DNA from: Alphaproteobacteria bacterium
Lineage (GTDB): Bacteria; Pseudomonadota; Alphaproteobacteria; Paracaedibacterales; VGCI01
DNA: 64,000 nt
Assembly (NCBI GenBank): GCA_016870095.1
Contig: VGCI01000006.1
Span: 7,349-71,348, forward strand
Direction: 5' to 3'
Shown here: positions 4,292 to 51,718 of the stretch, piece by piece
How positions within the stretch are numbered: the first letter of the stretch is position 1
Layout: the number at the start of each line of letters is the position of its first letter
Translations under genes and position numbers: made by a program
Notes under the pieces: generated by a model
Told to the model about the DNA's origin: nothing
Database searches by the model: none
What the model saw: the letters and a program-made list of their open reading frames with translations, nothing else

Positions 4292-5235
4292 ACACTGCCC
4301 CTCTTCGATTAATTTTTATGGGGACGCCTGCTTTTTCGGTTCCCACTCTTCAAACACTTGTGGATAGTCGTCACCAACTTATCGCTGTCTATTCTCAGCC
4401 TCCTCGCCCTAGTGGTCGGGGACATCAGGTTCGAAAGAGTGCTGTTCATCAATTTGCTGAACAATGGGAAATTCCCATTTATACCCCTAAAAGTTTAAAA
4501 GGTGAAGCCGAACAAACTGAATTTGCGGCGCACAAAGCAGACTTAGCGATTGTTATCGCTTATGGATTAATTTTACCGCAAAAGATATTGGATGCGCCGC
4601 GGCTAGGATGTTTAAATGTTCACGCGTCTTTGTTGCCGCGATGGCGGGGCGCTGCCCCTATTCACCGAGCCATCGAAGCGGGTGATTTAGAGACCGGAAT
4701 TACGATTATGAAAATGGATGTTGGATTAGATACTGGGCCTATGCTTCTTAAAAAAAACATATCCATTGATGCCCATACAACAGCTACAAATCTTCATGAT
4801 GCTCTTTCAAATATGGGGGGGCCGTTGCTTCTTGAAGCCCTTGAAGCTTATGCAGCCGGGACATTGCAACCGACCCCTCAACCCTTGGAAGGAGTTACGT
4901 ACGCCACAAAACTAACGCGAGAAGAAGGTCAAATCGACTGGAAGTTGTCGGCCTCTGTTTGGGTGCGAAAAATTCAGGCGTTTACCCCTTGGCCAGGAGT
5001 TTGGTTTGAGCACGACGGGACACGCCTCAAAATTCTTGCCGCTGAATCTATTCCAGAAGCGCAAGGAATTCCCGGAACAATTTTAGATGATCACTTGACC
5101 ATTGCGTGTGGAGAAGGGGCATTGCGTCTCAAAATACTTCAACGTCCCGGGGGCGCGCCCTTGGATGCAAAAGACTTTTTGCGCGGGTATCTCTTGCCCA
5201 AGGGAACTGTATTATCATGCCCCGTTACAAAGTAA
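4288..5235 (+). CDS. fmt: methionyl-tRNA formyltransferase
   Basis: Motifs [32 protein letters not shown] and the C-terminal domain. Its start overlaps the def stop (ATGA), and def-fmt is the canonical order. Confidence 0.95.
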
Positions 5236-5966
5236 TTCTGGAGTACGAAGGCAATCGTTTCAGCGGATGGCAACGTCAACGTAAACAAGCTTCCGTACAG
5301 GAAACCCTCGAAAAAGCCATAAAAGAAATGTTTGCAGAAGAAGTGCTGGTTGAGGGGGCGGGCCGCACGGATGCAGGCGTGCATGCTTTGGGGCAAGTGG
5401 CCCATTTTGATTTATCGCAAGATGTTCCCCCCTATCGGGTGAGCGACGGATTGAATCATTTTTTGCGAGAGAGCGGCGTGGTTGTTTTACACACACAAGG
5501 TGTCCCCCCCGACTTTCACGCTCGGTTTTCTGCTACGGGCCGTGAATATGAGTACCGCATTTTGAATCGACGGGCTCCCTTAGTTATTGAAGCAAATCAG
5601 GCCTGGAATGTCATACCTCCTTTAAATATTACTAAAATGCAAGAGGCAGCTAACCATTTGGTTGGCCATCATGATTTTACTAGCTTTCGCTCTGCGCATT
5701 GTCAGGCACCGTCGCCGATAAGAACTCTGGATAAATTTGACATCATTCACAAGCCAGCTTTCGTAGGGGATTATATTATTGCTCACGTCGCCTCTCGCGC
5801 TTTCTTACACAATCAGGTCCGTATTATGATGGGAACCTTAAAATTGGTGGGAGAAGGACGATTGAGTGTAGAAAGTATCCCGGACCTTCTTCAAACACGG
5901 GATCGTCGCACCACAGGTCCTACGGCTCCTCCTCAAGGGCTATATTTGAAGAGCATTGCTTATTAA
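5217..5966 (+). CDS. truA: tRNA pseudouridine(38-40) synthase
   Basis: [21 protein letters not shown] and [15 protein letters not shown] (catalytic Asp motif). The ATG at 5217 was chosen because the track start at 5106 adds a non-homologous extension inside fmt. Confidence 0.93.
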
Positions 5967-6090
5967 AAAGACTTTCCATTGTCTTTTACGTTGTTTACCC
6001 GTTAAAATTGTGGTATATCAATAGATCAAGGTGTAATTAATAGAGTTCGTTATTGTACTTACACAAGCACAATAACAAAAAAGATTTGCA

Positions 6091-6450
6091 ATGACTTACG
6101 TTGTTACAGAAGCCTGTATAAGATGTAAATATATGGATTGTGTAGAGGTGTGTCCGGTTGATTGTTTTTACGAAGGTGAAAACATGTTGGTCATCAATCC
6201 AGAAGAGTGCATCGACTGTGGTGTTTGTGAGCCAGAATGTCCGGCAGAAGCAATTATTCCCGATACAGCGCAAGGCTCAGAAAAATGGGTAGAAATGAAT
6301 CAGCAGTATGCTGGACAATGGCCAAATATAACCCGCAAAGGGGCAACCCCTGAAGATGCAGATCAGTGGTTAACGGTAAAAAATAAGTTTCAAGATCATT
6401 TCAGTGAAAAACCCCCGCAACGGGATAATCCAATGGGGACAAAATCATAA
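6091..6450 (+). CDS. fdxA: 7Fe ferredoxin (3Fe-4S/4Fe-4S)
   Basis: The N-terminus [29 protein letters not shown]...[12 protein letters not shown] carries the FdxA-type cysteine pattern. Confidence 0.9.
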
Positions 6451-6524
6451 CCCCCTTGTAAAAAAGGTGATCGTAACCACCTATAGAGTTCAGGTCCTTA
6501 CATTCAATCGATAGAAAAGAGAGT

Positions 6525-7037
6525 TTGACAATGACGACCACAATGACAAAAAAGATGTTTAGTGAAGGTGATTATGTTGTGTACCCAGCCCATGGGGTGG
6601 GACGTATTGTTGGGCATGAAACCCAGTCCATTGGTGATATCGAGGTACAATTGTTAGTCGTATCTTTTGAAAAAGACCGAATGATTTTGCGTTTGCCCTT
6701 ATCCAAAGCGAAGACAGCTGGGTTACGGCCTTTAAGTACTTCTGAAGATATGACTCAAGCTTTGCAAATGCTAACTATTCGGACAAAGTCTCGCCGGACA
6801 ATGTGGAGTCGTCGAGCGCAAGAGTATGAAGCGAAAATTAATTCAGGTGATCCAAAATCTATTGCTGAAGTCATTCGCGATTTGTATCGTACGACCACTC
6901 AGTCGGATCAATCCTACAGCGAACGTCAGATTTATCAAGCAGCGTTGGAACGTTTTGTGCGAGAGCTTGCTGCTGTTGAGAAAATAGATGAATCATCCGC
7001 AACTGAAAAATTGGAAGGTTTTTTAAAAGCCGCATAA
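6525..7037 (+). CDS. carD: CarD family transcriptional regulator
   Basis: FSEGDYVVYPAHGVGRIVG matches the CarD/TRCF RID-like N-terminus. Its position after fdxA is the usual alphaproteobacterial order. The start is ambiguous (TTG 6525 or ATG 6531). Confidence 0.9.
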   Translation: MTMTTTMTKKMFSEGDYVVYPAHGVGRIVGHETQSIGDIEVQLLVVSFEKDRMILRLPLSKAKTAGLRPLSTSEDMTQALQMLTIRTKSRRTMWSRRAQEYEAKINSGDPKSIAEVIRDLYRTTTQSDQSYSERQIYQAALERFVRELAAVEKIDESSATEKLEGFLKAA

Positions 7038-7398
7038 AGATTTACATTTCAAGAAAGATTGTCAGGAGATTGAAGACATAAATTTTGAATTGTTGACAGC
7101 TTTCTTTGAAATGTTGAAGTCTATATTTCGAGATCAGAATTTGACGATAAGCTTTTACCAATTTCGGCACGATTCCCCAATTAAACAATAATAATACGAA
7201 CGATATTAGGGTGTGCGTCTTCTTGTCTCAAAGGCGTATTGAAGAGCCACAAGCGACCCCATTTTATGTTGGCAATGTATTATTAAGACTATAAACCCTA
7301 GTATAGAGGGTATTTTTTGTGTTAAGGGTGACTGTCAAGTTAAAGTTATGAAAGTAGATTTTTTAGTGAAGAATATAAATGGTTAGAGGGTTAATAAA

Positions 7399-8976
7399 AT
7401 GATGAGTTTCTTTAAAAAATGGTGTTGTCTGGTGTTGTCAATTTCTATGATGGTATCGACCATAGCGCCAACCTGGGCGGTGAAAATCAGTCATCACGAA
7501 CAATTTTTTCCATCCTCCTCACCCTCGACAGCACCATTAAAAGAATGTGTCGAAAGCTATAAAATCCAAGAAAAACCTCTTAGCCAACCTCTTCCAAAAT
7601 ATATTGATTCCGCCTCACAAAATTCTAAACCTACGAGAGTTGCATTTGCAAATTCTTCTAACCCTCTTCTTTCATTCGTGACATTTGCCTGTGCGCATCC
7701 CCTACAAGCCCTGATGTTCTTATTTTTAATGCAAGAAAGCTTCTTTAAATGTTATCCCCTTGTTAAAGTTCCTGGCGTTGCTGCTGGTCTTTCCGTATCG
7801 GGACTAAATCAAAATTTAACGTGGAATGGGGTGTTGGGTTCACCTGTTCTTCTTAATTCTATTGTTGTTTATGATACAATTCCTGAAGAGGTAAATGTTC
7901 ATTATGATTTAACCTTAACCCTTAGTGATATTACGGCGGGTAATCTCACTTGCAATGGAACGACTTCTCTTCAACCATCTTTTATTGGAGGCGTTTGGAG
8001 CGCGTATGGACTGATTACACCTGTAAATGATTTGTTGTTGAATTGTAAGCTATTATATATTCCTTTAAAAAGTTTTTTTAATTTAACAATTGCTGGAAAA
8101 GTTCTTAGTATTGAGCCGCAAGAAAAGATTCAGGGCAATATCACTATTACAAATGTTGGAAGTTCGTTATCGACTGGTTCAAGTTTAAATGGAATGACCA
8201 CACCATCAGCCTCAAGCCAACCAAGTTCATCTTCTATCTCTGCTTCATCTCTAGGTACCGCTTCAACAATTGGGACGAGTCAATCTCAATCCGGTACGAG
8301 CAATCAAAATTCCAGTTCTTCAACTGAGAATTCTAATGTTATGAGCGGGTTAACGGATTCTCTATCAAATGGATTTTCACCAACCAATGACTCTTTCGGA
8401 ACCTCTCTATTGTCTAACAATATACCCCCAACAAATCCTATGGCCACAACAACCAATTCCCTTCTAAATATTATGAACAGTTCTCAAGACAAATCAGCAA
8501 TGATTATTGGAAGTAGTGTAGGGGGATGTGTCATCCTCACAGGTGCTATCGTTGCCCTGATTGTGGGCTATAAACGACAGTGGTGTGGTTTAAATTCTTC
8601 AGCGAAACAATCTCTAGTTCAAGATAAAGCTTTAGAGTCTGGACAATCTAAGCAATATGCATCTTTGGGACTATATCATAATCTCCCTCAAGGTGCGGGA
8701 CAGTCTGATACAACGAACTACTCGAAACCGCCAGCCCCTGATTCTTTTGATCAAAGTCCGGGAGGCCTCTACACCAATGCACCCATCGCGCCGGCAGGGT
8801 CTCCCCAAGGAAATGGAGTATACACTAGTGCCCCCCTTGCTCCGGCTAATAGTAATGGTTCTGGACAAAATCCTTACATTGCCTGTGATGCCCCTTTAAC
8901 TTCTCCATTGAACAATTATGATCGGCTTACAAGTAGCGAGGCTGCTTACGTGGAATGCGGTGCGCCTTTGGAGTAA
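7399..8976 (+). CDS. hypothetical surface/membrane protein with a Ser/Thr-rich stalk, single TM helix and Tyr/Pro-repeat tail
   Basis: Signal peptide MMSFFKKWCCLVLSISMMVSTIAPTWA. The S/T-rich low-complexity run spans about 8161-8490 and the TM helix AMIIGSSVGGCVILTGAIVALIVGY spans 8497-8571. The 134-aa tail contains 8 Tyr. Confidence 0.6.
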   Translation: MMSFFKKWCCLVLSISMMVSTIAPTWAVKISHHEQFFPSSSPSTAPLKECVESYKIQEKPLSQPLPKYIDSASQNSKPTRVAFANSSNPLLSFVTFACAHPLQALMFLFLMQESFFKCYPLVKVPGVAAGLSVSGLNQNLTWNGVLGSPVLLNSIVVYDTIPEEVNVHYDLTLTLSDITAGNLTCNGTTSLQPSFIGGVWSAYGLITPVNDLLLNCKLLYIPLKSFFNLTIAGKVLSIEPQEKIQGNITITNVGSSLSTGSSLNGMTTPSASSQPSSSSISASSLGTASTIGTSQSQSGTSNQNSSSSTENSNVMSGLTDSLSNGFSPTNDSFGTSLLSNNIPPTNPMATTTNSLLNIMNSSQDKSAMIIGSSVGGCVILTGAIVALIVGYKRQWCGLNSSAKQSLVQDKALESGQSKQYASLGLYHNLPQGAGQSDTTNYSKPPAPDSFDQSPGGLYTNAPIAPAGSPQGNGVYTSAPLAPANSNGSGQNPYIACDAPLTSPLNNYDRLTSSEAAYVECGAPLE

Positions 8977-9020
8977 AATCAGGGGGCAGTTGCCTATGAG
9001 TTCAGAAAATATAAGATAAA

Positions 9021-9060
9021 AATAAGCCCAAAAGATTTTTTTCTTTTGGGCTTATTATTT
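9021..9060. terminator. bidirectional intrinsic terminator between convergent genes
   Basis: Perfect 14-bp stem AATAAGCCCAAAAG (9021-9034) / CTTTTGGGCTTATT (9043-9056) with an 8-nt loop. It is flanked by an A-run on one side and a T-run on the other. Confidence 0.7.
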
Positions 9061-9083
9061 TCAAGTTATAAAACGAATATTTA

Positions 9084-9797
9084 TTATCCCCAAATATATT
9101 TTAAAGAGATAAGTGCGGTGCTAACGCGCGGTGTAATTTTAAAAGTTGCGGTTCTTGTTAGCCCTCCCCCTACATTTTGAGCAGGTCCAGTTTTTGTTAT
9201 AGAACCATAGAAGGCATAGCGGTATTCAACCCCCAGGGCTAAGTTTTTATTAAGATTAAAGTCCATTCCAGCACCCGGGGCAAAGGCTATTTTTCGATCA
9301 CTTGAAGATATTCCAGTAAAAGAAGAGAAGGCAGGGTTATCTGTGATTGAGGTTAATTTAAAGCGACGACTTTCAATACCTAGACGAACAAATGGATGTA
9401 TACGATCGATGCAAGAATAGCCTAATCGAATTCCAAAACCCCACGCACCACTTGTGGATTCAACTTTTTGACGATCAGAAAAATTATTACCGGTAACTAC
9501 AATATAATTATTTTTATTAAGGTTACCAAATAGATAATCCACCTCCAAGCCTAGTGTAAAATTGTTTAGAGCGGCCATATAGCCAAAATTTATGTCAATC
9601 CCTCCGGTTGAATTGGCAAACTGGTTAGAAAGTATTCGAGAAGTGCCTCCATTATTTGTAGCGTAAGTAATAACAGCATTATGATTTCCGATAACATTGG
9701 CGGCGCCGAGTCCGACGTATACATTGTGTTTCGCTCCTGCCAAGGTGGAAGAAACTGCAGCCATAGTCATTAAACTTACCAGTAACACTTTTTTCAT
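9084..9797 (-). CDS. outer-membrane beta-barrel protein (OMP_b-brl / OmpA-like porin family)
   Basis: Signal peptide MKKVLLVSLMTMAAVSSTLAG and an alternating amphipathic beta-strand pattern with G/Y/F-rich strands such as GAGMDFNLNKNLALGVEYRY. GGAG SD lies before the ATG at 9797, so the track start at 9854 is rejected. Confidence 0.75.
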   Translation of the reverse strand: MKKVLLVSLMTMAAVSSTLAGAKHNVYVGLGAANVIGNHNAVITYATNNGGTSRILSNQFANSTGGIDINFGYMAALNNFTLGLEVDYLFGNLNKNNYIVVTGNNFSDRQKVESTSGAWGFGIRLGYSCIDRIHPFVRLGIESRRFKLTSITDNPAFSSFTGISSSDRKIAFAPGAGMDFNLNKNLALGVEYRYAFYGSITKTGPAQNVGGGLTRTATFKITPRVSTALISLKYIWG

Positions 9798-10056
9798 GAT
9801 TCCATCTCCCTCATTGTTAATTTCATTAAATTTACCTATTTTCAAATAAAACATTTACTTAAAGTTGTTCTCTATTAATTCTAGGCATAGTTTTTGAGCT
9901 TTGATAGCCGAAAAAGAATAAATTTAATAAAATTTTTTATATGTGTGATAAAATGTTGCAAGGCTTGAATGTTGAGGCAGAAAGGGGAATATTTATACGC
10001 TTCACTATGAAATAAGAATCGGGCAAGAGATAAGATTTGCAGTTTTTACATTTAAA

Positions 10057-10947
10057 TTAAGGCCGCCGCCAAACTTCTGCCACTTCTTTTAAGAAGGTAT
10101 AAAAGGCCTGAATTTTTGGCGAGCCCTCCAAACTTTTATGATAGGTAAAGTAATAAGGAATTTTAACATCCGGGTGATCGGGGAAAACATCCACAAGTAA
10201 ATTTTTTTCCACAGTTGTGCGCTCATAGACGAAAGATCCTATCCCGAGTCCTTCCAGTAATGCGTTGCGAAGTGCCGTTCCACTATTGACTTCGATATGG
10301 GCGCGGTATTGATTGTTAGGATCTCGATATTCATGTAAAATATTGTGAGATTTAAACGATTCCGGGTCAGATAGATTATAAAAAATGAGCTTGTGATTTT
10401 TCAGATCCTCAAAAGTTTTGGGGGAGGAATGAGATTTGATATAGCTCGGAGAAGCGTATACCCTTTGTAAGCCGTCATAGAGGTGATGTTGAATAATATC
10501 CGGATCAGAAAATTTTGTGGGAACAAGACCTAAATCAGCATCACCAATTTGAAATTGAAAAACATCGGCCAAAGACATAAATTTAAAATTAAGGTGGGGA
10601 TATTTATGGGTAAGGGCTGGGAGGTATCTGAAAATGTGATCGATGGTTCCTGTGCCCATTACAATTTTTAAAGTCCCTGAAGGATTGAGCTTTCTTTCAC
10701 GAATTAGAGCTGCTCCCTGATCAAGCCGACCAATGGTTTGTTGGCATAATTCTAAAAATTCTTGGCCTTCCGCTGTTAAACTGATGCCTCTTGAATGGCG
10801 AATAAAAAGAGTTATTCCCACTTCGTTGGCTAGAGCGGTCATTTGACGCCCTAAATTAGGTTGCGTGGTACCAACTTCTTGGGCGGCTTTACTCAAATTT
10901 TTAGTGCGCGCCACGACCGTAAAGGATTTAAGGTGGGTCAGTTCCAT
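10057..10947 (-). CDS. LysR family transcriptional regulator
   Basis: N-terminal wHTH MELTHLKSFTVVARTKNLSKAAQEVGTTQPNLGRQMTALANEVGITLF followed by a LysR substrate-binding region. Confidence 0.9.
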   Translation of the reverse strand: MELTHLKSFTVVARTKNLSKAAQEVGTTQPNLGRQMTALANEVGITLFIRHSRGISLTAEGQEFLELCQQTIGRLDQGAALIRERKLNPSGTLKIVMGTGTIDHIFRYLPALTHKYPHLNFKFMSLADVFQFQIGDADLGLVPTKFSDPDIIQHHLYDGLQRVYASPSYIKSHSSPKTFEDLKNHKLIFYNLSDPESFKSHNILHEYRDPNNQYRAHIEVNSGTALRNALLEGLGIGSFVYERTTVEKNLLVDVFPDHPDVKIPYYFTYHKSLEGSPKIQAFYTFLKEVAEVWRRP

Positions 10948-11251
10948 TTTAAATAGCCTCTATATATGGGAAATAATAATTATGCCATCATAATTATGAA
11001 TACCTTAATATCCTCTTAAAACCCATTTCATTATTGCACTTAATACAATGTCTAAAAACTTATATCACAAGAGAAATAGAATTGGGAAAAAATATGCCAG
11101 ATTAAGGAGGTGGGTATTACAGGGATCGTAAGAATTACTTTATATAGGGTACAATTTTTGTTTTTTTTACTAAATACTTAATATTAGAATATTTGAGAGT
11201 GTTTAGGGTTTTGACCTTACCATGTTATTGTTATCTTTTCTCTAAGATTTA

Positions 11252-11277
11252 AGAGAAGGCTTTTTATGGCCTTCTCT
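11252..11277 (-). terminator. hairpin downstream of the sORF pair (possible terminator)
   Basis: Perfect 9-bp stem AGAGAAGGC (11252-11260) / GCCTTCTCT (11269-11277) with an 8-nt loop. There is no clear U-tract on the reverse strand, so confidence is low. Confidence 0.35.
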
Positions 11278-11345
11278 AGAACCTATATGAACAAATTTAT
11301 TTTTTCATTAACATAATTACGTAAAATAACTAAAATTTTTGTAAC

Positions 11346-11411
11346 TTATTCGCCCACAAATATAGGTGAATAAGCTTGAGCTACTTTTGATTCGATAGTT
11401 AGTTTTTTCAT
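11346..11411 (-). CDS. sORF-A, 21-aa peptide MKKLTIESKVAQAYSPIFVGE (unknown function)
   Basis: ATG to TAA spans 22 codons, with AAGGAAG 6 nt upstream of the ATG. It is a paralogue of sORF-B with 18/21 aa identical. Differences are mostly synonymous, and similarity ends at the start and stop codons. Confidence 0.5.
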   Translation of the reverse strand: MKKLTIESKVAQAYSPIFVGE

Positions 11412-11513
11412 GTTAGTCTTCCTTATTTAAAAGTGAATTATAATTTATACAAAGAGTTGTTTTAAAGAATAACGGCTCTGCCTATTGCAGAGAGCAGTTA
11501 AAATCATTCCTGT

Positions 11514-11579
11514 TTATTCACCTACAAATATGGGTGAATAGCATTGTGCTACTTTTGATTCAATGGCTAGTTTTTGCAT
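11514..11579 (-). CDS. sORF-B, 21-aa peptide MQKLAIESKVAQCYSPIFVGE (unknown function)
   Basis: Same length and frame as sORF-A, with GGAG 6 nt upstream of the ATG at 11579. In-frame ATGs also occur at 11582, 11591 and 11594, so the N-terminus could be up to 5 aa longer. Confidence 0.5.
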   Translation of the reverse strand: MQKLAIESKVAQCYSPIFVGE

Positions 11580-12176
11580 CATAATCTCCATCATTAAAAA
11601 TATTATAAATACCTTGAGAAAGTGTTGAGGCTGTTTAGTGGCTTTTTTTAATTATTTTGCGAGCCTCTTTATACCTCTGTAGACTAGCCCACGATAATTT
11701 TTGGACCAATAAATATTTTTAATTTAATTGTCTTAAAATACATTTTAACAAACATAAAACCATTAATAATTTATTGAATAAACTTAGAAATTCTTTTAAC
11801 TATCTTCTAAAGCGACAAAACGCCACGCCCTAAAATAATTTTTGAGATATACAATAACTGCAGATGTTTTATTTAAAATATGCAATTCACTATTTGTCAT
11901 TTTATTTATGAATATTTACTTCACGCTTTCCAATGTATAGGCGTAAAGCCGGTGTTCACCCTGCATCAACAAGGGCAATACCCTTGATGAATTGACAATC
12001 AGAATTACCTTGCCCCTTAACCAGATGTTTACGCTCTTCCCTCTATGATTAAGGTTAATAAGGAACACGAAAGGCACACACGAATAATAAGATTCTGACA
12101 AAGTGCAAGCAGTTAAGGAGTTTGAGTCAATTTTTCTCTTTTTCTGCATTTCATGTCCAATAGTTTGTGAGGAAAA

Positions 12177-13055
12177 ATGAAACAATTTTCATCGGGTTCG
12201 ACTACAAAGCATGCGGACCTGGAGTATATCCGCCAGTTGATGGACCAGCCCCTACTGAAACGGGATGAAGAACATGAATTAGCGATTGCCTGGCACGATC
12301 GACATGACGAAAAGGCTTTACATCTCCTGGTGCAGGCTTATATGCGGTTAGTAGTGAGTACAGCAGTGCGATTCCGCCATTATGGCATTCCCTTATCAGA
12401 TCTTATTCAAGAAGGTAATCTTGGGCTCATGTATGCGGCTGAGCGGTTTGATCCAGAAAGAGATGTTCGTTTTTCCACCTATGCCAGGTGGTGGATACGG
12501 TCTCATATTCAAGAATATATATTGCGCAATTGGTCTATTGTTAGGACCGGCTCCACATCATCTCAAAAGCAGCTCTTTTTTAATTTGCGTCGTCTGAAGG
12601 CGCAATTGGCAAAAATGAGCACAGACCAAATGACGATGGAAGAAAGAGGACATATTGCTGAAACTTTGCAAGTTCCTTTACATGATGTTGAGGATATGGA
12701 AAATCGGCTTTCTTCACATGATTTATCTTTGAGTCATCCGATGAGTGAAACGGGTAGTGATGATTGGGTGGATTCATTGGCAGATCAAAATCCTGATCCC
12801 GAAACTTCAGCTGTTATTAATCTTGACGATAGTATTCGCCGATTATGGATTCAAGGCGCCATGCATTATTTAAGCCCGCGAGAGCGCATGATCATAACTG
12901 TGCGTCGGTTAGCAGATCATCCCACAACTTTAGAAGATGTTGGTAAAAAATTGAAAATTAGTAAAGAGCGCGTGCGTCAGTTGGAGGTCAGAGCGATTCG
13001 CAAGATGCGGCATCATTTGTTACACAACATTCAAGATTTAAAGGAAGTGTTGTAA
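12177..13055 (+). CDS. rpoH: RNA polymerase sigma-32 (heat-shock sigma factor)
   Basis: Sigma-70 regions 2-4 are present (QEGNLGLMYAAERFDP, STYARWWIR) together with the RpoH box QKQLFFNLRRLK. GAGGA lies 4 nt before the ATG. Confidence 0.93.
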   Translation: MKQFSSGSTTKHADLEYIRQLMDQPLLKRDEEHELAIAWHDRHDEKALHLLVQAYMRLVVSTAVRFRHYGIPLSDLIQEGNLGLMYAAERFDPERDVRFSTYARWWIRSHIQEYILRNWSIVRTGSTSSQKQLFFNLRRLKAQLAKMSTDQMTMEERGHIAETLQVPLHDVEDMENRLSSHDLSLSHPMSETGSDDWVDSLADQNPDPETSAVINLDDSIRRLWIQGAMHYLSPRERMIITVRRLADHPTTLEDVGKKLKISKERVRQLEVRAIRKMRHHLLHNIQDLKEVL

Positions 13056-13999: not shown

Positions 14000-14758
14000 A
14001 TGTATTATTGGTTTCCATTTTTAGGATTTTGCATGCTCTTGATGATGCCTGCATTTTCTCTTGATGATCTCAAAACTAAAGAAATGCATGCTTATCCAAA
14101 AATGTGCAGAATATGGGACACAATTGAAAAAGTAAGATTTCCCAATCAAAGTCCTCTCATTCCCCATGCGATTTTCTATGACGGGGGAACCTGCTTGGAT
14201 ATATTTGTTACATTTGAGAGCGATAGTGGATTTATGGAATCTACGGGCGAAGAAAACGATGTTCCCGAAAGTCCTCGCTTTTTACCTTCGCCGAGGGCTG
14301 CCAAAAAAGAGGATAATGGTCATTTTGGAAACGAAACTCTTGACGGAAAATTTAGATATTACACTCAAAATGCAACTCTGCAAGATTCTAATATCCTTCC
14401 AGGGCCAATCACTATAAAATTGTGGTGCTATCGAGATTCGACGGGACTTAAAAAATTATACTTCACCAAAAGCAGTGCTGTTCTGCGATTATCCATACCA
14501 TCTTTAGACAGTAAATCTTTTAATTCGGATATGGCCAAATACCTTATAAAGGTCCTACAAAGTGGTTTTCGATCCCCACCTCAGCAAGGCATGGAATGCG
14601 TAGATTGGCGTGGGGAAGATAAAGTTATCAATATGGTAGTAAAAACATTAGGGCATCATTTTATTAGATATACGAATCGACCATTCTGCTCGGTCTTTAA
14701 AGGGATTGTTAACGAGTGTCGAGAAGAACGGAAAATTTTGGATGAAGTTGAAAGGTAA
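14000..14758 (+). CDS. hypothetical secreted protein (Cys-containing, no recognised domain)
   Basis: A 252-aa ORF with N-terminal hydrophobic signal YYWFPFLGFCMLLMMPAFS. A terminator hairpin follows it. Confidence 0.5.
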   Translation: MYYWFPFLGFCMLLMMPAFSLDDLKTKEMHAYPKMCRIWDTIEKVRFPNQSPLIPHAIFYDGGTCLDIFVTFESDSGFMESTGEENDVPESPRFLPSPRAAKKEDNGHFGNETLDGKFRYYTQNATLQDSNILPGPITIKLWCYRDSTGLKKLYFTKSSAVLRLSIPSLDSKSFNSDMAKYLIKVLQSGFRSPPQQGMECVDWRGEDKVINMVVKTLGHHFIRYTNRPFCSVFKGIVNECREERKILDEVER

Positions 14759-20070: not shown

Positions 20071-22524
<2,454 letters not shown>

Positions 22525-22566
22525 TCAGTTTTTAATACAGTTGCTCTATAATTGTGACAGTTAAAA

Positions 22567-23739
22567 TCAAATTGTCAAAGTTGCATTATGAACCGTCAAG
22601 AATTGTGCTTGAGGGTTCAGGTCTTGGAAGGCAGACTTTTCGGTTCCGGTCATCCAGACTTGAAAAGGGCCCTTAGAAGACTCAAGAGATGAATCTTTGG
22701 CGGGCCCACAAATTTCTTGAAATAAAATCAGCCGGTGCTGATCATCCAAGTGTGCTGCAATGTCATCTAACAATAAGATAACTGGGCACGTACGATAATT
22801 TTCTTGAACTTTTATAAAAGCCAAGGTTAAGGCAAGTAACAACATTTTCTGTTCTCCCGTGGAGCATAGCTCTGCTGGAAGCTGTTTGGCAAGATGGTGT
22901 ACTTGAAAATCACTCCGGTGAGGCCCAATGGCAGCTCCGCCAGCCTCTCCATCTTGATAACGATTACTTGCAAGCCTTGCTGCATATTGGTCTTCAACGG
23001 CAAGCGCCGGTTGATTTGTTGTCCAGCATTCAATTTCACCTTTCATTTCAGCGCGAAATTGAGGAAATGGAAAAGATTTTTCGATTCGTTGAGCACTTTC
23101 CAAGCTTTTAACGACCTGTTGCCGAGCCACCACAATGGCGACGCCATCTTCTGCCAAGTGTCTTTCTAAAGTTGAAACCCACAAGGGATCATAACGTCCT
23201 TCTCGCAGGAGGTGTGCACGTTCGCGCAAATGGTGTTCATATCGATGAAGTCTTGATGCATGATTTGCATCCACTGCAAAAACGAGTCGATCAATAAACT
23301 TTCGCCTAACGGATGCAGGCTCTAAGAATAGTCGATCCATTTGAGGCGTTACCCAAATGACACTGATCCAATCAGTTAAGGATGCCTGACTTTTTGCTGG
23401 CGTACCATTAATTTTAACCACACGGCGTTCGTTTCCTATGGCTGTGTAATCTAATCCAGTTCCCAATTGAACAGGACCGTGATACGTTTCTACGGTAGCT
23501 GCAATTGCCCATAAGGTTGGATGAGTCATATCATCATTCACTTTTTTAAGATTGGTGACTTGTGACAGCTTAATACTTCGCAATCCTCGGCCGGGAGACA
23601 AAAAAGAAAGAGCTTCCAAAATGTTTGTCTTACCTGCTCCGTTAGGTCCTGTCAGAACGATAGTGTCAGCGTGAAGATGGAGGTCTAATCCTTGATAATT
23701 TCGAAACTGATGCAACGCAAGTCGCGACAAACCCATCAT
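22567..23739 (-). CDS. recF: DNA replication and repair protein RecF
   Basis: LALHQFRNY...LTGPNGAGKTNILEAL (Walker A) and the signature region. The start is set at the MMGLSRL ATG (23739) instead of the longer track ORF. Confidence 0.93.
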   Translation of the reverse strand: MMGLSRLALHQFRNYQGLDLHLHADTIVLTGPNGAGKTNILEALSFLSPGRGLRSIKLSQVTNLKKVNDDMTHPTLWAIAATVETYHGPVQLGTGLDYTAIGNERRVVKINGTPAKSQASLTDWISVIWVTPQMDRLFLEPASVRRKFIDRLVFAVDANHASRLHRYEHHLRERAHLLREGRYDPLWVSTLERHLAEDGVAIVVARQQVVKSLESAQRIEKSFPFPQFRAEMKGEIECWTTNQPALAVEDQYAARLASNRYQDGEAGGAAIGPHRSDFQVHHLAKQLPAELCSTGEQKMLLLALTLAFIKVQENYRTCPVILLLDDIAAHLDDQHRLILFQEICGPAKDSSLESSKGPFQVWMTGTEKSAFQDLNPQAQFLTVHNATLTI

Positions 23740-23845
23740 AGGTGAAGGTTGAACAGAAATATTTTCTTTGCATTGTCGTATCTGCACTTAATGATAGTCC
23801 CTGCCATACTTTTTTATCATGTGATATCTTGCGACCTTGCTTTTA

Positions 23846-24964
23846 TCAGACCCGCATGGGCATGAGAACATAAGTTGCTTCTTGATTTGTCATCCCCTTA
23901 ATAATGGCTGGCGCATCCCCATTTGCCAGAACAACTTGAGCTTCATCCTCATCAATTTGTTGGGCAATATCAAGTAAATAACGAGCATTAAAACCGATTT
24001 CAACGGGAGCATGCGGAAAGTCGATCGCAATCTCTTCGGTGGCATTACCTAAATCATGACTTGCTGCAGATAGGGTGAGCATATTGTTGTTTAAACTCAT
24101 TTTTATAGTTCTAATCTTGTCATTCGAAACGGTAGCCACTCGATCGACAGCTGCTGCGAAAGTTTTTGCATCAATAATGGCAATTTTATCATTACCACTC
24201 GGAATGGCTTTTTCATATTCCGGGTAAGTTGCATCAATTAATCGAGAACTTAACACGGCATTCTCAAACGCAAATTCAATGCGTGTTGGAGAGAGAGCAA
24301 CTTGAACTTCAGTGGTTGTATCATCTACCAATTTGCGAGCTTCTGTGATGGTTTTGCGTCCAATAATGATGCCAGGGATATTTTCGGCTCCTTCAGGCAA
24401 AGGGACTTCAATATAGGCAAGGCGATGCGCATCTGTGGCGACGGAGCGAAGGATTTTTTGCCCTTCTCTTTCCAGTGTATGAAAGTGTATTCCATTTAGA
24501 TAATAGCGGGTTTCTTCTGTGGACATAGCAAATTTTGCACGGTCTAAAAGCTTTTTAAATATCGCGATGGGTAAAGAAAAATGGAAGGGTAATTCCCCTT
24601 GAGTGAGTTGGGGAAAATCTTCGGGATCCAGGCAAGACAGATTAAAACGAGATCGCCCCCCTTTTAAGTTTAATTGGCCTGTTTCCGACAAATAAGTCAG
24701 TTCAATCGTGGACCCTTCGGGAAGTTTTCTCACAATATCAAATAGCATTTGAGCAGAGACAGTCGTTGTACCTGGCTCAGTCACAATTGCAGGGACTGTC
24801 TCTATGAGAGCAAGATCCGTATCTGTAGTAATTAAACTTAAGCCCATGGGCGTTGCGCTTAAAAGAACGTTACTTAGGATGGGGATTGTTGTTCTTCGTT
24901 CAACAACACTTTGACCATGGGAAAGGGCTTTTAAAAAAGCGGATCTATCAACTGTTAACTTCAT
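23846..24964 (-). CDS. dnaN: DNA polymerase III beta sliding clamp
   Basis: MKLTVDRSAFLKAL...ILSNVLL N-terminus, 372 aa, and its position between dnaA and recF. Confidence 0.95.
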   Translation of the reverse strand: MKLTVDRSAFLKALSHGQSVVERRTTIPILSNVLLSATPMGLSLITTDTDLALIETVPAIVTEPGTTTVSAQMLFDIVRKLPEGSTIELTYLSETGQLNLKGGRSRFNLSCLDPEDFPQLTQGELPFHFSLPIAIFKKLLDRAKFAMSTEETRYYLNGIHFHTLEREGQKILRSVATDAHRLAYIEVPLPEGAENIPGIIIGRKTITEARKLVDDTTTEVQVALSPTRIEFAFENAVLSSRLIDATYPEYEKAIPSGNDKIAIIDAKTFAAAVDRVATVSNDKIRTIKMSLNNNMLTLSAASHDLGNATEEIAIDFPHAPVEIGFNARYLLDIAQQIDEDEAQVVLANGDAPAIIKGMTNQEATYVLMPMRV

Positions 24965-24972
24965 GACTTAAA

Positions 24973-26403
24973 TTATACCTCCAAGTTTCTACGTAAAATA
25001 TCGAGATCATCTGAAAATTCTCGATCTTGAATTCTGACTTCTTCAACTTTGCGCACAGCATGTAAGACGGTTGTGTGGTCGCGTCCACCAAATTTTCTGC
25101 CAATTTCAGGAAGAGATCGAGATGTTAATGTCTTAGCCAAATACATAGCGACTTGACGAGGACGGGCAACATTTTGAGATCGTCTAGCAGACTGCATATC
25201 TGAAATCTTAATGCCATAATACTCTGAGACACGCTTTTGAATATCCTCGATTGTGATACGTCGATCATTCGCTTTTAAAAGATCTCGCAAAACATCATGA
25301 GTTGTTTCCAAGGTAATTTCGCGGCCCACGAGAGTGGCATGGGCGATAATACGATTTAAGGCACCTTCAAGTTCGCGGATGTTTGAACTGATCTTGCGCG
25401 CTAAAAATTCCATAACATCTTTTGGAATTCCTATATTTAAAGTATCTGCTTTGGCGTGTAAAATTCCTAATCGTAATTCATAGGTTGTCGGATGAATATC
25501 CGCCACCAGTCCCCATCCAAGGCGGGATTTTAAACGATCTTCCATGCCTTCCAAATCAGAAGGAGACTTGTCAGCAGAAATAATTATTTGATGATTTTGA
25601 TCAACGAGAGCATTGAAAGTATGAAAAAATTCTTCTTGCGTCGTTTCTTTACCGCTGATGAATTGAACATCATCAATCATGAGAACATCAACGGAACGGA
25701 ACAGTTCTTTGAATGACACCGTATCTTTGAAACGTAAGGCACGAATAAATTGATACATAAATTTTTCTGCTGATAAATAGATAACGCGACGTTTGGGATG
25801 ATAGGTTTTAATGTGCCAGGCAATCGCATGCATTAAGTGGGTTTTACCAAGACCAACCCCGCCATATAAGAACAGGGGGTTGAATTGAGCCGTTTGAGAT
25901 TCTGCAACGCGTAAAGCAGCGGCATAAGCAAGTTCGTTAGGTTTGCCAACCACAAAATTATCAAAAGTGAATCGAGGATCAAGGGCTGCGCCAAGAACAT
26001 CTCGATCTATGCCAATGGATTCTTCATCGATGAGAGAAGCTTCTTTGGGACTTTGAGGAGTGCCCGCTGGGAGAATTTCATCTGGCTGTTGGGAAGGTAG
26101 CGGGACCGGAGTGCCCATTTTAACAATAACTTCAACTGCCGTAATAGAGGGATTTAGGCCTAGCCAGAGGAGCCGAATGCGTTCCACATAATGAGAAACA
26201 ACCCAATCACGCATAAAACGCGTTGGGGCAGCAATTCGAACAGTGTTTCCCAAAACATCGATTACAAACAGGGGTTTAATCCAGCTCTTAAACACAGCTT
26301 CACCAAATTCTAACCGCAACTGCTCACGAACTTTTTCCCACTGAGGGATAGTTTCGGTAGTATGATCTATGTCTTTTGATTCTGTTAATGCCAGCGCTGT
26401 CAA
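24973..26403 (-). CDS. dnaA: chromosomal replication initiator protein DnaA
   Basis: AAA+ Walker A GGVGLGKTHL and the domain IV DNA-binding helix GGRDHTTVLHA. It starts at TTG. Confidence 0.96.
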   Translation of the reverse strand: MTALALTESKDIDHTTETIPQWEKVREQLRLEFGEAVFKSWIKPLFVIDVLGNTVRIAAPTRFMRDWVVSHYVERIRLLWLGLNPSITAVEVIVKMGTPVPLPSQQPDEILPAGTPQSPKEASLIDEESIGIDRDVLGAALDPRFTFDNFVVGKPNELAYAAALRVAESQTAQFNPLFLYGGVGLGKTHLMHAIAWHIKTYHPKRRVIYLSAEKFMYQFIRALRFKDTVSFKELFRSVDVLMIDDVQFISGKETTQEEFFHTFNALVDQNHQIIISADKSPSDLEGMEDRLKSRLGWGLVADIHPTTYELRLGILHAKADTLNIGIPKDVMEFLARKISSNIRELEGALNRIIAHATLVGREITLETTHDVLRDLLKANDRRITIEDIQKRVSEYYGIKISDMQSARRSQNVARPRQVAMYLAKTLTSRSLPEIGRKFGGRDHTTVLHAVRKVEEVRIQDREFSDDLDILRRNLEV

Positions 26404-26790: not shown

Positions 26791-27696
26791 GTGGAGAATG
26801 AAGCCTATGAAAAGGAATTTCCAGGAATGCGATTCTGTTTATTAAAGCATGGATTATTAGTTGCAACCCTAATAGAGTTAGGTATTTTAAGCAGCGGGCC
26901 TATTGTGGCCAACACAATCCCTGAAGCAACTCCGCTTTCCGCCTCTCAGAATGAAGTAAATCAGAGTCCTTCTGCTGACTTAACATCATCAGCTTCGCAG
27001 GAATTCTCGTCAGATGAAGGACCTAATGATCCTTTAGAACCCCTCAATAGATTTGTGTTCTCGATAAACGAAATTCTTGATTTCGCACTTTTAAGGCCTG
27101 TTGCAGAAATTTATCGAGCTGTTACTCCCGACCCCCTAAAACGAGGTGTATCAAATGTTTTGGATAATCTATTTGCACCTGTCAGTTTCTTAAACCATAT
27201 TTTTCAAGGCGAGCCAGAACGGGCTACCGTAACCCTTTTCCGTTTCTTGCTAAACTCTAGCATTGGCTTTTTAGGGATTTCAGACTTTGCGTCTGATAGG
27301 GGCTATCCTCGCTATGACACGGACTTTAATCAGACATTAATAACGTGGGGTATTGATACAGGTCCCTATTTGGTTTTACCATTATTAGGATCTTCCTCAT
27401 TCCGGGGTACGGCTGGGTTTGTGGCAGACTATTATGCAGATCCTCTTAATATATATCTTAATAATCACCATCATTGGAAATATCATTATTGGTTGACCGT
27501 TCGTTATGGATTCGATATGCTGAGGAATCGCGAGAAAGTCATTGAAACAATAGATAATTTAAGAAGTGGCTCTTTCGACTTTTATATTACAATGCGGAGT
27601 ATTTACTTCCAACGTCAGGCCTATTTGGCTGAAAAACTAAAATCTGCAAAATCTCCAGAGGTAGCTAAGGAGGAACAAACAAGGGTGACTTCATAA
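26791..27696 (+). CDS. mlaA: MlaA/VacJ family outer-membrane lipid-asymmetry protein
   Basis: DPLEPLNRFVFSINEILDFALLRPVAEIYRAVTP and FLNHIFQG are VacJ family motifs. The start is GTG 26791 or ATG 26827. Confidence 0.8.
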   Translation: MENEAYEKEFPGMRFCLLKHGLLVATLIELGILSSGPIVANTIPEATPLSASQNEVNQSPSADLTSSASQEFSSDEGPNDPLEPLNRFVFSINEILDFALLRPVAEIYRAVTPDPLKRGVSNVLDNLFAPVSFLNHIFQGEPERATVTLFRFLLNSSIGFLGISDFASDRGYPRYDTDFNQTLITWGIDTGPYLVLPLLGSSSFRGTAGFVADYYADPLNIYLNNHHHWKYHYWLTVRYGFDMLRNREKVIETIDNLRSGSFDFYITMRSIYFQRQAYLAEKLKSAKSPEVAKEEQTRVTS

Positions 27697-27762
27697 CCGT
27701 TTGTTAATCTCTTTCTTGTAGGCTTTACATTAAGGATTATTGCAATCAAGAACGAGGATATT

Positions 27763-28350
27763 ATGATTAAGAATTTTTTTTATTCCCTAGTCGCTATTTT
27801 GTTTTTCTCGCAACTTAGCTCTCAATCAATTTTGGCAGACACCCCTGACGGAGCCAAGGCTTTTATAGAAGATTTAGGTCGACGAGCCATTAACTCTCTG
27901 ACGAAGCCAGACGTATCACAAGAGCAGTTAGAATCCAATTTTGAAAAACTTTTGAATGAAGGATTTGATGTTCCTGGTATTGCAAGATTTGTTATGGGGC
28001 GGTATTGGGTTCAAATGAATGATGAACAAAAAGAGAGATTTGTTCCCCTATTTAAAGCTCGTCTTAAAAAGTCTTATGCAAATCGTTTCCAAGCCTATCG
28101 TGGTGTTGTTTTCGTTGTCAAAGATGCGCGCCAAGAAAAAGATCACGTTATTGTATCCAGTACCATTCAGAAACCTGGCGAAGCTTTGACACCGGTTGAG
28201 TGGCGTGTGGCAGGCGGAAAAATTCATGATGTAAAAGTTGAAGGCGTAAGTATGAGTATCACCATTCGAGATGAATATAATGCTCTTGTTCAATCCAACA
28301 ACCGGAATATTGAAAAATTCATGAGCATGATTGCTGGATCTGTACAATAA
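27763..28350 (+). CDS. mlaC: MlaC/Ttg2D family phospholipid-binding periplasmic protein
   Basis: Signal peptide followed by FDVPGIARFVMGRYW, typical of the toluene-tolerance Ttg2D family. It sits next to mlaA. Confidence 0.7.
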   Translation: MIKNFFYSLVAILFFSQLSSQSILADTPDGAKAFIEDLGRRAINSLTKPDVSQEQLESNFEKLLNEGFDVPGIARFVMGRYWVQMNDEQKERFVPLFKARLKKSYANRFQAYRGVVFVVKDARQEKDHVIVSSTIQKPGEALTPVEWRVAGGKIHDVKVEGVSMSITIRDEYNALVQSNNRNIEKFMSMIAGSVQ

Positions 28351-41813: not shown

Positions 41814-42121
41814 TTCCTATAAGACCATTTGAATTTATTATTGCTTATCATAAAGGAGTACCTTTGAAGACATATATTTCACAAACAACATTATTATTCA
41901 TAATGATGGATTTTTTAAATATCAATAATAATAATTTTTTTGAATTCGTTATGGCCAATTTAATAACAAAAAACGACAAATATTTAAGGTTTAAGCGGTC
42001 AAGTTTAAATTATTATAAATTTTAAAAAATTCTTTTTAACACTTTATTAGGCTTTGTTTTGTTAAATTTAAGGCAGTCCCATTGCAACTCACAAGTCGGT
42101 ATAGGAGTGAAAATATTCATC

Positions 42122-44430: not shown

Positions 44431-45534
44431 ATGATTTCTCAAAAAAAACTTTTTATTAATACATTAAGTACTCGCTTTAGATGGTTAACAATTAAAAGCT
44501 GCTTTCTGGGAAGCCTGACTGTTTTTGCCAGTTGGCAAGCCTCTCCTTGCAGAGGTTTCGATGAATTTAATCAAAGTGAAGATGCTTTTCGATACCAAAG
44601 TCATTATCATTTTCATCCTGAAAATGGCACACCCCAATTTTGGTCGCATAGGGAAAGGGTTAGAAATATTGGGCTAACAAGAGAGCCTGTGGAACGGTAT
44701 CGCCCGAGAAGTATTTTATCCTTACCACAATCTTCTGAAGAAATTTTTACTAAGCATTTCGCAGAGACAAATTCGACAGTTTCTAACTCAAAAGCCATAA
44801 TACTGGGGACAAATGATTGGAGACAATCCGTTGAACATCAAGGTGATCTCGGAACTTGTGCAAGTTTTGCAACGGTAGAAGGTTTGAAATTTGTTCATAA
44901 AAACACTTCTCTTTCTCACCCTTATCTTATTGTAAAAGCAGAAAAACGCGATGATTGTATAAATAACGGTATTTCACTTGGTCATACGATGGATACAGCT
45001 CTTGATATTGGTGTCGTTGATGGAAATTTGTGGCCCTACAAACCTTACGCTGCTTCAGTAAAAGCCACAAATAGTGAGATTAGAGATCCAGATCATTGGA
45101 ATATTTGTTTAAATCCCCCTTTTACGAAACTTGTCGAAAAAAACTTTGTTAAATATGCTTTTGAGGATGTAAAAAGCCTCTTTTTATCGGAACAAAGACG
45201 TTGCAAAATTGGTGAACGTTGCGAATTTTCCAAAAGCTTGACCATCTGTCAAGCGCTTACAGAAAACAAATGTCCTGTTATTATTTCAGTTCCAGTTGAT
45301 GTGGGGGGTTGGCCAATATCAGGTGTGATTGAAACGCTCAATAGAGCAAACGGTTTTCATGCGATTACGATCTACGGATATGACCCCAAAACCGAATTTT
45401 TTTATTTTAAGAATACGTGGGGGCAAAATTGGGGCGAGCAGGGTCATGGTCGTATGAGTTTTTCTTATGTCGATAAGCATGCTAGTGAGGCATGGGTTGG
45501 CATAGGGGGAAGATTATTAGCATTTACGCAGTAA
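44431..45534 (+). CDS. papain-like (C1 family) cysteine peptidase, secreted
   Basis: NDWRQSVEHQGDLGTCASFATVEG matches papain DWRQ…QGSCGSCWAF (Cys codon at 44857). NGFHAITIYGYD carries the His and FKNTWGQNWGEQGHGRM the Asn/Trp box. An N-terminal hydrophobic signal is present. Confidence 0.85.
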   Translation: MISQKKLFINTLSTRFRWLTIKSCFLGSLTVFASWQASPCRGFDEFNQSEDAFRYQSHYHFHPENGTPQFWSHRERVRNIGLTREPVERYRPRSILSLPQSSEEIFTKHFAETNSTVSNSKAIILGTNDWRQSVEHQGDLGTCASFATVEGLKFVHKNTSLSHPYLIVKAEKRDDCINNGISLGHTMDTALDIGVVDGNLWPYKPYAASVKATNSEIRDPDHWNICLNPPFTKLVEKNFVKYAFEDVKSLFLSEQRRCKIGERCEFSKSLTICQALTENKCPVIISVPVDVGGWPISGVIETLNRANGFHAITIYGYDPKTEFFYFKNTWGQNWGEQGHGRMSFSYVDKHASEAWVGIGGRLLAFTQ

Positions 45535-51578: not shown

Positions 51579-51718
51579 ATCACTGCCTCTATATCCTCTT
51601 TTATATAATGATATCATTATATTAAAAATTTTATATATTTTTTTATCTAAAATTAAGATAGTTGAAACTTTTTGTGTGGTTTGATTGAGGGGTAAGGTAT
51701 GATTAAGGGTGCATTTTT

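Follow-up and report, generated by a model that had tools for sequence, protein, structure and literature searches.

We analysed a stretch of 64,000 nucleotides (the window) from contig VGCI01000006.1 of an alphaproteobacterial metagenome-assembled genome (MAG; GCA_016870095.1). Our subject is the product of the open reading frame (ORF) at 7399-8976 on the plus strand, which we call X. It is the sole long ORF at that position and encodes 525 amino acids. An earlier reading of the DNA letters, here the original prediction, had described X as a bacterial protein built like a eukaryotic type I membrane glycoprotein, and possibly derived from a host or mimicking one. The analysis indicates that the exported part of X carries a bacterial cadherin-like domain and is exchanged between strains, while the tyrosine-rich tail is kept. 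We propose with moderate confidence that X is a polymorphic envelope protein that is anchored in the inner membrane and has a constant docking tail.

A 360-bp intergenic region (7038..7398, plus strand) precedes X and, from a reading of its sequence, presumably holds the promoter; a sigma-70-like match at 7164-7192 is weak, and promoter matches are no commoner there than in shuffled sequences. The Shine-Dalgarno-like AGAGGG at 7385-7390 lies 8 nt 5' of the ATG at 7399. Downstream, a bidirectional intrinsic-terminator hairpin (9021..9056, both strands), with a 15-bp stem and flanking T-runs on both strands, stands between X and the convergent gene for an outer-membrane protein (OMP) and is common to the two genes. 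X has a GC content of 0.412 and a GC content at third codon positions (GC3) of 0.307, compared with 0.411 +/- 0.029 and 0.340 +/- 0.034 for the genes of the window; its composition is typical of the genome. Scans of the whole protein against Pfam, NCBIfam, PHROGs and PADLOC gave no match, and an Rfam scan of 6000-12500 returned nothing real.

The X family consists of four 90%-identity clusters among 5.8 billion proteins. P0001 is the window protein, named by NCBI as a hypothetical protein of the alphaproteobacterial MAG, and P0002, P0003 and P0004 are 68%, 62% and 58% identical to it. In four of four carriers X lies directly downstream of fdxA-carD and, where the contigs reach, upstream of the same OMP, lysR and rpoH genes. 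Omega, the ratio of nonsynonymous to synonymous substitution rates, is below 1 in almost all regions and pairs compared among the four orthologues. Since omega is mostly below 1, a ribosome-binding site and a terminator are present, and the four orthologues occupy the same post-carD position, X is a real gene.

All carriers belong to one Candidatus Finniella-like clade (Paracaedibacteraceae), and the RpoH of the window is 87-92% identical to that of Candidatus Finniella MAGs and 62% to that of Candidatus Odyssella. Finniella species live as endosymbionts in the cytoplasm of cercozoan amoeboflagellates and ciliates, and the host-interaction mechanisms of Holosporales/Paracaedibacteraceae are poorly understood (PMC11909080). 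No homologue of X, the OMP or lysR was found at the locus of a Finniella sp. (L002) in which both rpoH and carD are present, and a pattern scan with the X family alignment over one genome per GTDB species found no relative of X. These absences suggest that X is restricted to a narrow subclade. Scans of metagenome contigs with the tail alignment and the full alignment gave pattern matches, none of which was confirmed by tblastn. The original prediction had seen X in a small variable-looking block and had pointed to sister genomes as informative. X is indeed missing next to carD and rpoH in L002, and both X and the OMP are hypervariable, but the position of X behind carD is fixed in the four carriers.

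Every feature that had been listed for X is present where it was placed (all features of X given below are on the plus strand). The Sec-type signal peptide (residues 1-27; 7399..7479) opens with MMSFFKK, which contains a KK n-region, continues into a hydrophobic core and ends in PTWA. The cut is predicted between TWA and VK, and IAPTWAVK is invariant in all four orthologues. The mature protein starts with a Pro/Ser/Lys-rich segment, residues 28-88 (7480..7662), that varies among the orthologues (amino acid identity 33-70%, omega 0.22-0.54) and for which no homologues were found. A conserved hydrophobic helix-break-helix follows at residues 89-117 (7663..7749; NPLLSFVTFACAHPLQALMFLFLMQESFFK; omega 0.03-0.20), which forms helices in a low-confidence full-length AlphaFold2 (AF2) model run on four sequences (predicted local distance difference test, pLDDT, 27). 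Behind the folded domain described below lies the claimed Ser/Thr-rich stalk of ~110 residues, a low-complexity run at residues 255-366 (8161..8496) with 32% Ser, 13% Thr and 12% Asn. By amino acid identity (33-76%) and omega (0.3-0.9) in orthologue pairs, it is the most variable part of X. The single Gly-rich transmembrane (TM) helix, residues 367-391 (8497..8571), reaches a Kyte-Doolittle value of 2.13 and is directly followed by KRQW, the start of the basic flank KRQWCG, which with its Cys is invariant in the four orthologues.

The cleavable signal peptide, the one stop-transfer helix and the basic flank agree, at the level of sequence, with the type I layout that had been described. We considered residues 89-117 as a further TM helix and rejected it, as His, Pro and Gln occur in the segment and the orthologues add Lys and Glu. 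Across the four proteins the best summed value on the Hessa scale is +3.2 to +10 for residues 89-117 and about 0 to -1.5 for residues 367-391. A topology with two TM helices and a periplasmic tail was rejected on the same grounds (Lys, Glu and His in the orthologues, a Hessa sum of up to +10). Because 89-117 is not a membrane helix and the sole strong helix is 367-391, X is predicted to be N-out and C-in. This agrees with the positive-inside rule, the KR flank being C-terminal of the helix. Hydrophobicity and flanking charges thus put the tail inside the bacterial cytoplasm, not outside the cell. A lipoprotein was rejected because X has no lipobox, and X is not a protein with a C-terminal sorting tag (LPXTG, PEP-CTERM, GlyGly-CTERM and others), as 134 residues follow the TM helix and no sorting domain of NCBIfam or Pfam matched.

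Within the ectodomain of ~225 amino acids, residues ~131-254 (7789..8160) are predicted by profile, BLASTP, hhalign and AF2 evidence to form a single bacterial cadherin-like or Ig-like beta-sandwich domain. A profile made solely from the four X ectodomains matches P0005, a fragment of a giant tandem-repeat protein (adhesin), with E = 5.5e-20. In BLASTP, residues 148-235 of X align with every one of the P0005 repeats (40% identity, E = 3e-10), and hhalign of the X profile against 30 adhesin repeats gives a probability of 96.7% (E = 3.4e-10). P0005, for its part, scores above the Pfam gathering thresholds for Cadherin_5, Cadherin_4, Big_9 and SWM_repeat. A mixed profile of X and the adhesin repeats collected 213 more proteins. 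Among the 120 of these that were listed, many have these Pfam domains too, and two are named 'Bacterial cadherin-like domain' in their source. With the mixed-profile alignment, AF2 folds residues 118-256 into a beta-sandwich of 10 strands and one helix (pLDDT 89, predicted template-modelling score 0.82). A Foldseek search of this domain against the PDB returned generic Ig-/cadherin-like neighbours only, with weak TM-scores of 0.4-0.56, among them protocadherins, E-cadherin, a fibrillar-adhesin domain and pilins. A PDB sequence search with the ectodomain profile gave no match at E <= 10, and neither whole X nor the isolated domain of the four orthologues matched a Cadherin or Big Pfam model even at E <= 10. 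The cadherin-like membership of X is by transitive homology only.

X and the adhesin repeats have the signature TLTLSD..AG.L, GGVW.A.G and N[LF]TIA in common. The acidic SDVD/DxD motif of adhesin repeats is a presumed Ca2+ site. In the alignments the adhesin-repeat VVSDVDS corresponds to VVYD-TIPEE or VVSDPTIPEE in X, and the acidic SDVD motif is absent. The domain is present in one copy, with no tandem repetition. By these alignments, the X ectodomain is a divergent single-copy member of the family of bacterial cadherin-like adhesin repeats. Homology and the predicted beta-sandwich link X to the repeats of giant adhesins (Cadherin_5, PF17892; Cadherin_4, PF17803; Big_9, PF17963), but those proteins carry tens of tandem copies, whereas X has a single one that falls below the Pfam models and has lost SDVD. 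In X the domain is joined to a Sec signal, a Ser/Thr stalk, a TM anchor and a long tail, in contrast to the type I secretion system (T1SS) context of giant adhesins. A Sec signal, a helical anchor and a tail of this kind are not combined with this domain in any described protein.

The original prediction had allowed for a host-derived X. Remote homology and structure prediction lead to a bacterial cadherin-like repeat and not to a eukaryotic one; GC and GC3 are native, and sequence-database searches with the whole protein, the ectodomain profile and the tail profile found no eukaryotic homologue. All the above speak against a host origin, and X is not a eukaryotic gene in a bacterium. The prediction had also set X apart from widespread ordinary bacterial surface proteins. 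This is true of the whole protein, which is clade-restricted, but not of its ectodomain, which is an ordinary bacterial repeat.

The density of N-x-S/T sequons had suggested a glycoprotein. Residues 28-254 contain NSS85, NLT139, NLT182, NGT186, NLT228 and NIT247, that is six compared with 2.4 expected from shuffles (P = 0.02), while the stalk is depleted (3 vs 5.6 expected) and the excess over whole X has P = 0.09. The six triplets of the ectodomain are thus real, but their excess is only modest and is not significant over the whole protein. Moreover, NLT139 lines up with the NLS at the start of each adhesin repeat, FNLTIAG228 with SN[LF]TIAT and AGNLT182 with the adhesin-repeat AGSL(S/T/N). 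Two of the three NLT triplets (139 and 228) coincide with sequon-like triplets of the bacterial repeat consensus (NLS, N[LF]T), which weakens the glycoprotein reading. Bacterial PglB uses the form D/E-x-N-x-S/T, and by inspection no X sequon has this form. The sequons of X would largely be part of the bacterial repeat signature.

The C-terminal tail, residues 392-525 with the stop codon (8572..8976), is predicted to be disordered and to lie in the bacterial cytoplasm; it is unstructured in the low-confidence full-length AF2 model. Its 134 residues contain the eight tyrosines that had been counted, in YTNAPIAP, YTSAPLAP, YIACDAPL, YVECGAPL, YASL, YHNL and YDRL, the eighth being in YSKP. The tail is the best-conserved region of X, with 75-91% identity and omega of 0.09-0.16 over residues 392-500, which suggests strong purifying selection. 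All eight tyrosines are invariant in orthologues that are only 58-68% identical overall, compared with 58% of all tail columns, so the repeat tyrosines are conserved. Also invariant in the four orthologues are C396 (8584-8586), H427 (8677-8679), C496 (8884-8886) and C520 (8956-8958). C396 is juxtamembrane, and the cysteines of the ectodomain are not conserved across the orthologues. The invariant Cys and His of the tail could be a metal or redox site, or acylation sites if the tail is in a host.

The four-fold Y...AP[LI] repeat described earlier is present but is better read as two pairs, [LV]YT[NKS]AP[IL]APA and Y[IV][AE]C[DG]xPL. Pair A (8770..8847) consists of LYTNAPIAPA (Y458) and VYTSAPLAPA (Y475), with Y, T, A, P, A, P and A unchanged across the four orthologues. 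Pair B (8875..8970) consists of YIACDAPL (Y493) and YVECGAPL (Y517, near the C-terminus), with YDRL (Y507) between the two units; Y-[IV]-x-C-[DG] is invariant, and P0004 has a degenerate AP[LI] part. The pattern Y-x(2-4)-A-P-[LI], which was defined post hoc, occurs 4 times compared with 0.03 expected. Known eukaryotic-type motifs are not above chance: YxxPhi (Phi, a hydrophobic residue) occurs 3 times vs 1.07 expected (P = 0.08), YxN 2 vs 0.6 (P = 0.11) and PxxP 3 vs 1.35 (P = 0.13). The tail has no EPIYA-like motif and no NPxY, nor is it enriched in canonical SH2, SH3 or endocytic motifs. No tandem repeats were found at the DNA level under the tail motifs. An exhaustive HMMER search of 1.84 billion representative proteins with the tail profile returned the family and two spurious repeat proteins only. 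The latter, P0126 and P0127, were rejected, as their totals are summed over 3 to 12 identical weak repeats (15-17 bits or ~3 bits each) and leave the tyrosines unaligned. A PDB sequence search with the tail profile gave no match at E <= 10. The tail appears to be a clade-specific invention.

The exported part behaves differently. We compared positions 5720-9240 of the window with positions 1-3513 of L022, a contig from sequencing run SRR22388173 that carries allele P0002. From 5720 to 7480 the DNA identity is 100%, with just one mismatch over the 1.76 kb, which take in fdxA, carD, the intergenic region (7038..7398, itself 100% identical) and the signal peptide. The identity falls to 47-87% precisely at the cleavage site of the signal peptide and stays in that range until ~8740. 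It returns to 97-98% over the distal tail and the terminator (8741-9095) and then drops inside the OMP gene. The synonymous divergence (dS) is 0 for fdxA and carD and ~1.5 for the X ectodomain. From this DNA identity profile, 7480..8740 (plus strand) is marked as a putative recombination cassette that differs from the otherwise identical genome of L022.

A sliding-window comparison of the four alleles gave changing nearest neighbours along X. The window and P0002 are the closest pair over residues 1-30 (100% DNA identity) and 442-525 (83-98%), the window and P0003 over residues 86-130 (83-90%) and 353-441 (87-96%), and P0002 and P0004 over residues 16-204 and 220-382 (69-93%). Over residues 250-307 the window allele is only 37-48% identical to the three others. 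Thus P0002 is nearest to P0004 over most of the exodomain despite a genome background equal to that of the window. The exceptions are the comparison windows 190-219 and 205-234, in which P0002-P0004 identity is 59-64% and other pairs are closer. Because the nearest neighbours form a mosaic and a divergent X sits in an identical background, the exported part of X appears to have been repeatedly replaced by homologous recombination between divergent alleles, with the tail kept. The contrast between the window and L022 implies strain-level polymorphism or possibly an assembly chimera. A diversity-generating retroelement was rejected as the source of the variability, as the divergence has indels, reaches 50-60% and involves all bases. 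The gene wsp of Wolbachia encodes a mosaic surface protein of intracellular alphaproteobacteria. X resembles it in that alleles are built by recombination of divergent segments in close genomes, and the adjacent OMP behaves similarly. Unlike the outer-membrane barrel of the wsp type, X is alpha-helically anchored and single-pass, with a conserved cytoplasmic module.

From the sequence, Sec is predicted to export X and the signal peptide to be cut after TWA, with the one stop-transfer helix holding the protein in the bacterial inner membrane, N-out and C-in. The exported part is predicted to present a variable disordered tip, the conserved hydrophobic helix pair and a cadherin-like beta-sandwich that was probably drawn from the repeats of giant bacterial adhesins, followed by an extended Ser/Thr-rich stalk of ~110 residues. 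Together with the TM region, it appears to be swapped between strains by homologous recombination to yield mosaic alleles. We propose that the variable exodomain spans the periplasm towards the outer membrane and binds, or is targeted by, something that is itself variable. The polymorphic OMP encoded beside X, a phage or bacteriocin, or a host factor could take this role. In the constant disordered tail, the two Tyr-motif pairs and the invariant Cys and His may serve as short linear motifs at which a conserved partner docks in the bacterial cytoplasm. The likeness of X to a eukaryotic type I glycoprotein would then be convergent, its eukaryote-like look arising from the bacterial Ig-like domain, the low-complexity linker and N-x-S/T triplets that follow from composition. 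A split into variable and constant modules usually marks an interface molecule under conflict, and a tail that acts in the bacterium would be a new short-motif docking module. The case is also a cautionary one, in that N-x-S/T density, Ser/Thr stalks and Ig-like folds can give an ordinary bacterial adhesin module the look of a eukaryotic glycoprotein.

Several points weigh against this proposal. Hypervariability driven by recombination is expected of a protein exposed on the cell surface and not of one confined to the periplasm. Neither a bacterial partner nor an enzymatic domain is identifiable for X, and the docking role of the tail is pure inference. The topology is derived from hydrophobicity and charge rules, and, to our knowledge, single-pass signal-peptide proteins with long cytoplasmic C-terminal tails are uncommon in diderm bacteria. 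Only four alleles are available, and the selection tests are weak. The L022 assembly is possibly chimeric, but the return to 97-98% identity and the mosaic in all pairs counter this objection.

A role of X in host interaction is plausible, since the organism is close to Candidatus Finniella, whose members are protist endosymbionts. The clade-restricted and chromosomally fixed locus makes X a concrete host-interaction candidate for a poorly understood group. Of the original prediction, the layout and the conserved tyrosines stand, but a eukaryotic origin and a glycoprotein character are not supported. One form of host mimicry is that X is moved into a host membrane with its tail facing the host cytosol, where the invariant Tyr, PxxP and juxtamembrane Cys motifs would serve as linear motifs of eukaryotic type in phosphorylation, adaptor binding, sorting or palmitoylation, as in Tir, CagA, Tarp, Bep or the Coxiella effectors with endocytic sorting motifs. 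We regard this as possible but unlikely. The tail is predicted to be disordered and is unique, yet it is the best-conserved region, with all eight tyrosines and C396 invariant and three conserved YxxPhi and three PxxP motifs; the exodomain is hypervariable and mosaic, as host-exposed antigens are, and the clade is one of cytoplasmic protist endosymbionts. Effectors with sorting motifs have precedent (PMC5176192), and so does the passage of effectors through an inner-membrane intermediate whose C-terminal signal is cytoplasmic (PMC11602083). However, a classical Sec signal peptide and a stop-transfer helix predict retention in the bacterial inner membrane, and the tail in the bacterial cytoplasm would therefore be beyond host kinases unless a further delivery step exists. 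The only documented route for effectors inserted in the inner membrane, the two-step route of Legionella, requires a cytoplasm-facing C-terminal signal and short periplasmic loops (PMC11602083). X resembles the transmembrane effectors of the type IV secretion system (T4SS), such as Legionella SidF, in its predicted inner-membrane insertion and in a C-in tail that could present a C-terminal signal; those effectors have neither a cleavable signal peptide nor a large folded exodomain and need short loops (PMC11602083), whereas X exports ~340 residues including a folded domain. YxxPhi, PxxP and YxN are at chance level, no EPIYA-like motif is present, and the searches gave no eukaryotic homologue. 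In addition, no secretion system could be linked to X in the 64-kb window, which has only a T1SS, 41 kb off.

CagA with its EPIYA motifs, Tir, Tarp and Bartonella BepD-F are tyrosine-phosphorylated bacterial effectors with repeated motifs. X is like them in having repeated conserved Tyr motifs in a disordered segment in a host-associated bacterium, and unlike them in its Sec signal and stop-transfer helix and in motifs that are not EPIYA-like and hold no SH2 consensus above chance. No link of X to a type III secretion system or a T4SS was found, and tyrosine-kinase signalling is not established in the host lineage. A variant with novel motifs is that X is a Sec-dependent anchored host-interaction factor in or at host membranes, in which [LV]YTxAP[IL]APA and Y[IV]xC[DG]xPL engage host adaptor, sorting or kinase machinery while the exodomain recombines to escape recognition. 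This appears rather improbable to us; if true, X would be an independently evolved bacterial imitation of a eukaryotic type I receptor, and a tail acting in the host would represent a new class of eukaryote-mimicking anchor. Another alternative is a polymorphic adhesin or recognition receptor on the cell surface, with the exodomain brought outside the outer membrane by some route, perhaps with the adjacent OMP. Such a receptor would serve attachment or strain-specific recognition, as in Myxococcus TraA, and its diversity would be kept by negative frequency-dependent selection. In favour of it, the domain belongs to a family of extracellular adhesins, alleles in identical genomic backgrounds form strong mosaics, the convergent OMP likewise evolves fast, with its differences in discrete stretches, and the extended stalk of 110 residues could span the periplasm. 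Against these stand that no known mechanism takes an inner-membrane-anchored polypeptide across the outer membrane, that X has no autotransporter, T1SS, sortase-like or lipoprotein signal and a 134-residue tail that excludes C-terminal sorting tags, and that the presumed Ca-binding SDVD of extracellular repeats is replaced in X by a [YS]D(P)TIPEE-type sequence. A surface receptor of this kind thus seems doubtful.

The last alternative, a type I adhesion receptor horizontally acquired from the protist host, is in our judgement very improbable. X has the same order of parts as eukaryotic type I receptors and mucin-like glycoproteins (cadherins, Dictyostelium SibA), namely a signal peptide, an Ig/cadherin-like fold, a Ser/Thr stalk, a Gly-rich TM helix, a juxtamembrane Cys and a Tyr tail, and protocadherins are among its weak Foldseek matches. 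Some amoebal adhesion receptors, for example Dictyostelium SibA, contain bacterial-type repeats, so a bacterial-looking domain alone would not exclude a host origin. Viridiraptorids and many ciliates are poorly represented in databases, and missing matches are therefore weak evidence. However, X has no sequence homology to any eukaryotic protein and lacks NPxY or another canonical tail motif, and in a diderm bacterium the same topology puts its 'ectodomain' in the periplasm. The domain is 40% identical to bacterial adhesin repeats, many of the listed matches to the folded domain carry bacterial cadherin-like Pfam domains, and no eukaryotic relative appeared in the sequence-database searches. 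GC and GC3 are genome-typical, the signal peptide, ribosome-binding site and terminator are of bacterial type, and the chromosomal locus has the same position in all four carriers.

The neighbouring gene, convergent with X, encodes a small beta-barrel OMP (9084..9854, minus strand; Pfam OMP_b-brl, E = 4.5e-13) whose likely true start is the ATG at 9797. The protein has 71% amino acid identity to its orthologue in L001, compared with 98% for RpoH and CarD, and the differences are grouped in discrete stretches separated by conserved blocks. Compared with L022, the gene is divergent from ~9096 up to where that contig ends. This fast-evolving OMP may be functionally linked to X. Further downstream, between lysR and rpoH, 10950-12170 is a gene-poor AT-rich spacer of 1.2 kb (28-30% GC vs 40% for the window) with no Rfam match and no convincing ORF.

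Elsewhere in the window, 49881-55206 holds the type I secretion set, composed of a TolC-like outer membrane efflux protein (minus strand), an ABC exporter with an N-terminal C39 peptidase domain and an HlyD-family adaptor, for which no obvious substrate was identified. Near it are genes for a papain-family C1 protease (44431-45534) and a CHASE-GGDEF protein (42059-44164). The dnaA-dnaN-recF-gyrB cluster at 20071-26403 (minus strand) indicates that the window adjoins the chromosomal replication origin, and mlaA and mlaC follow this cluster at 26791-28350. Four ORFs of 160-571 amino acids (1716-2198, 14000-14758, 34973-36688 and 58997-60640) have no Pfam family or a sub-threshold match only and may be further lineage-specific proteins of the endosymbiont clade. 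The mechanically called truA ORF at 5106-5966 starts from GTG 5106 and overlaps fmt by 130 nt. Orthologous gene calls have 249 amino acids and begin MPRYKV, which indicates that its real start is the ATG at 5217 (5217-5966).

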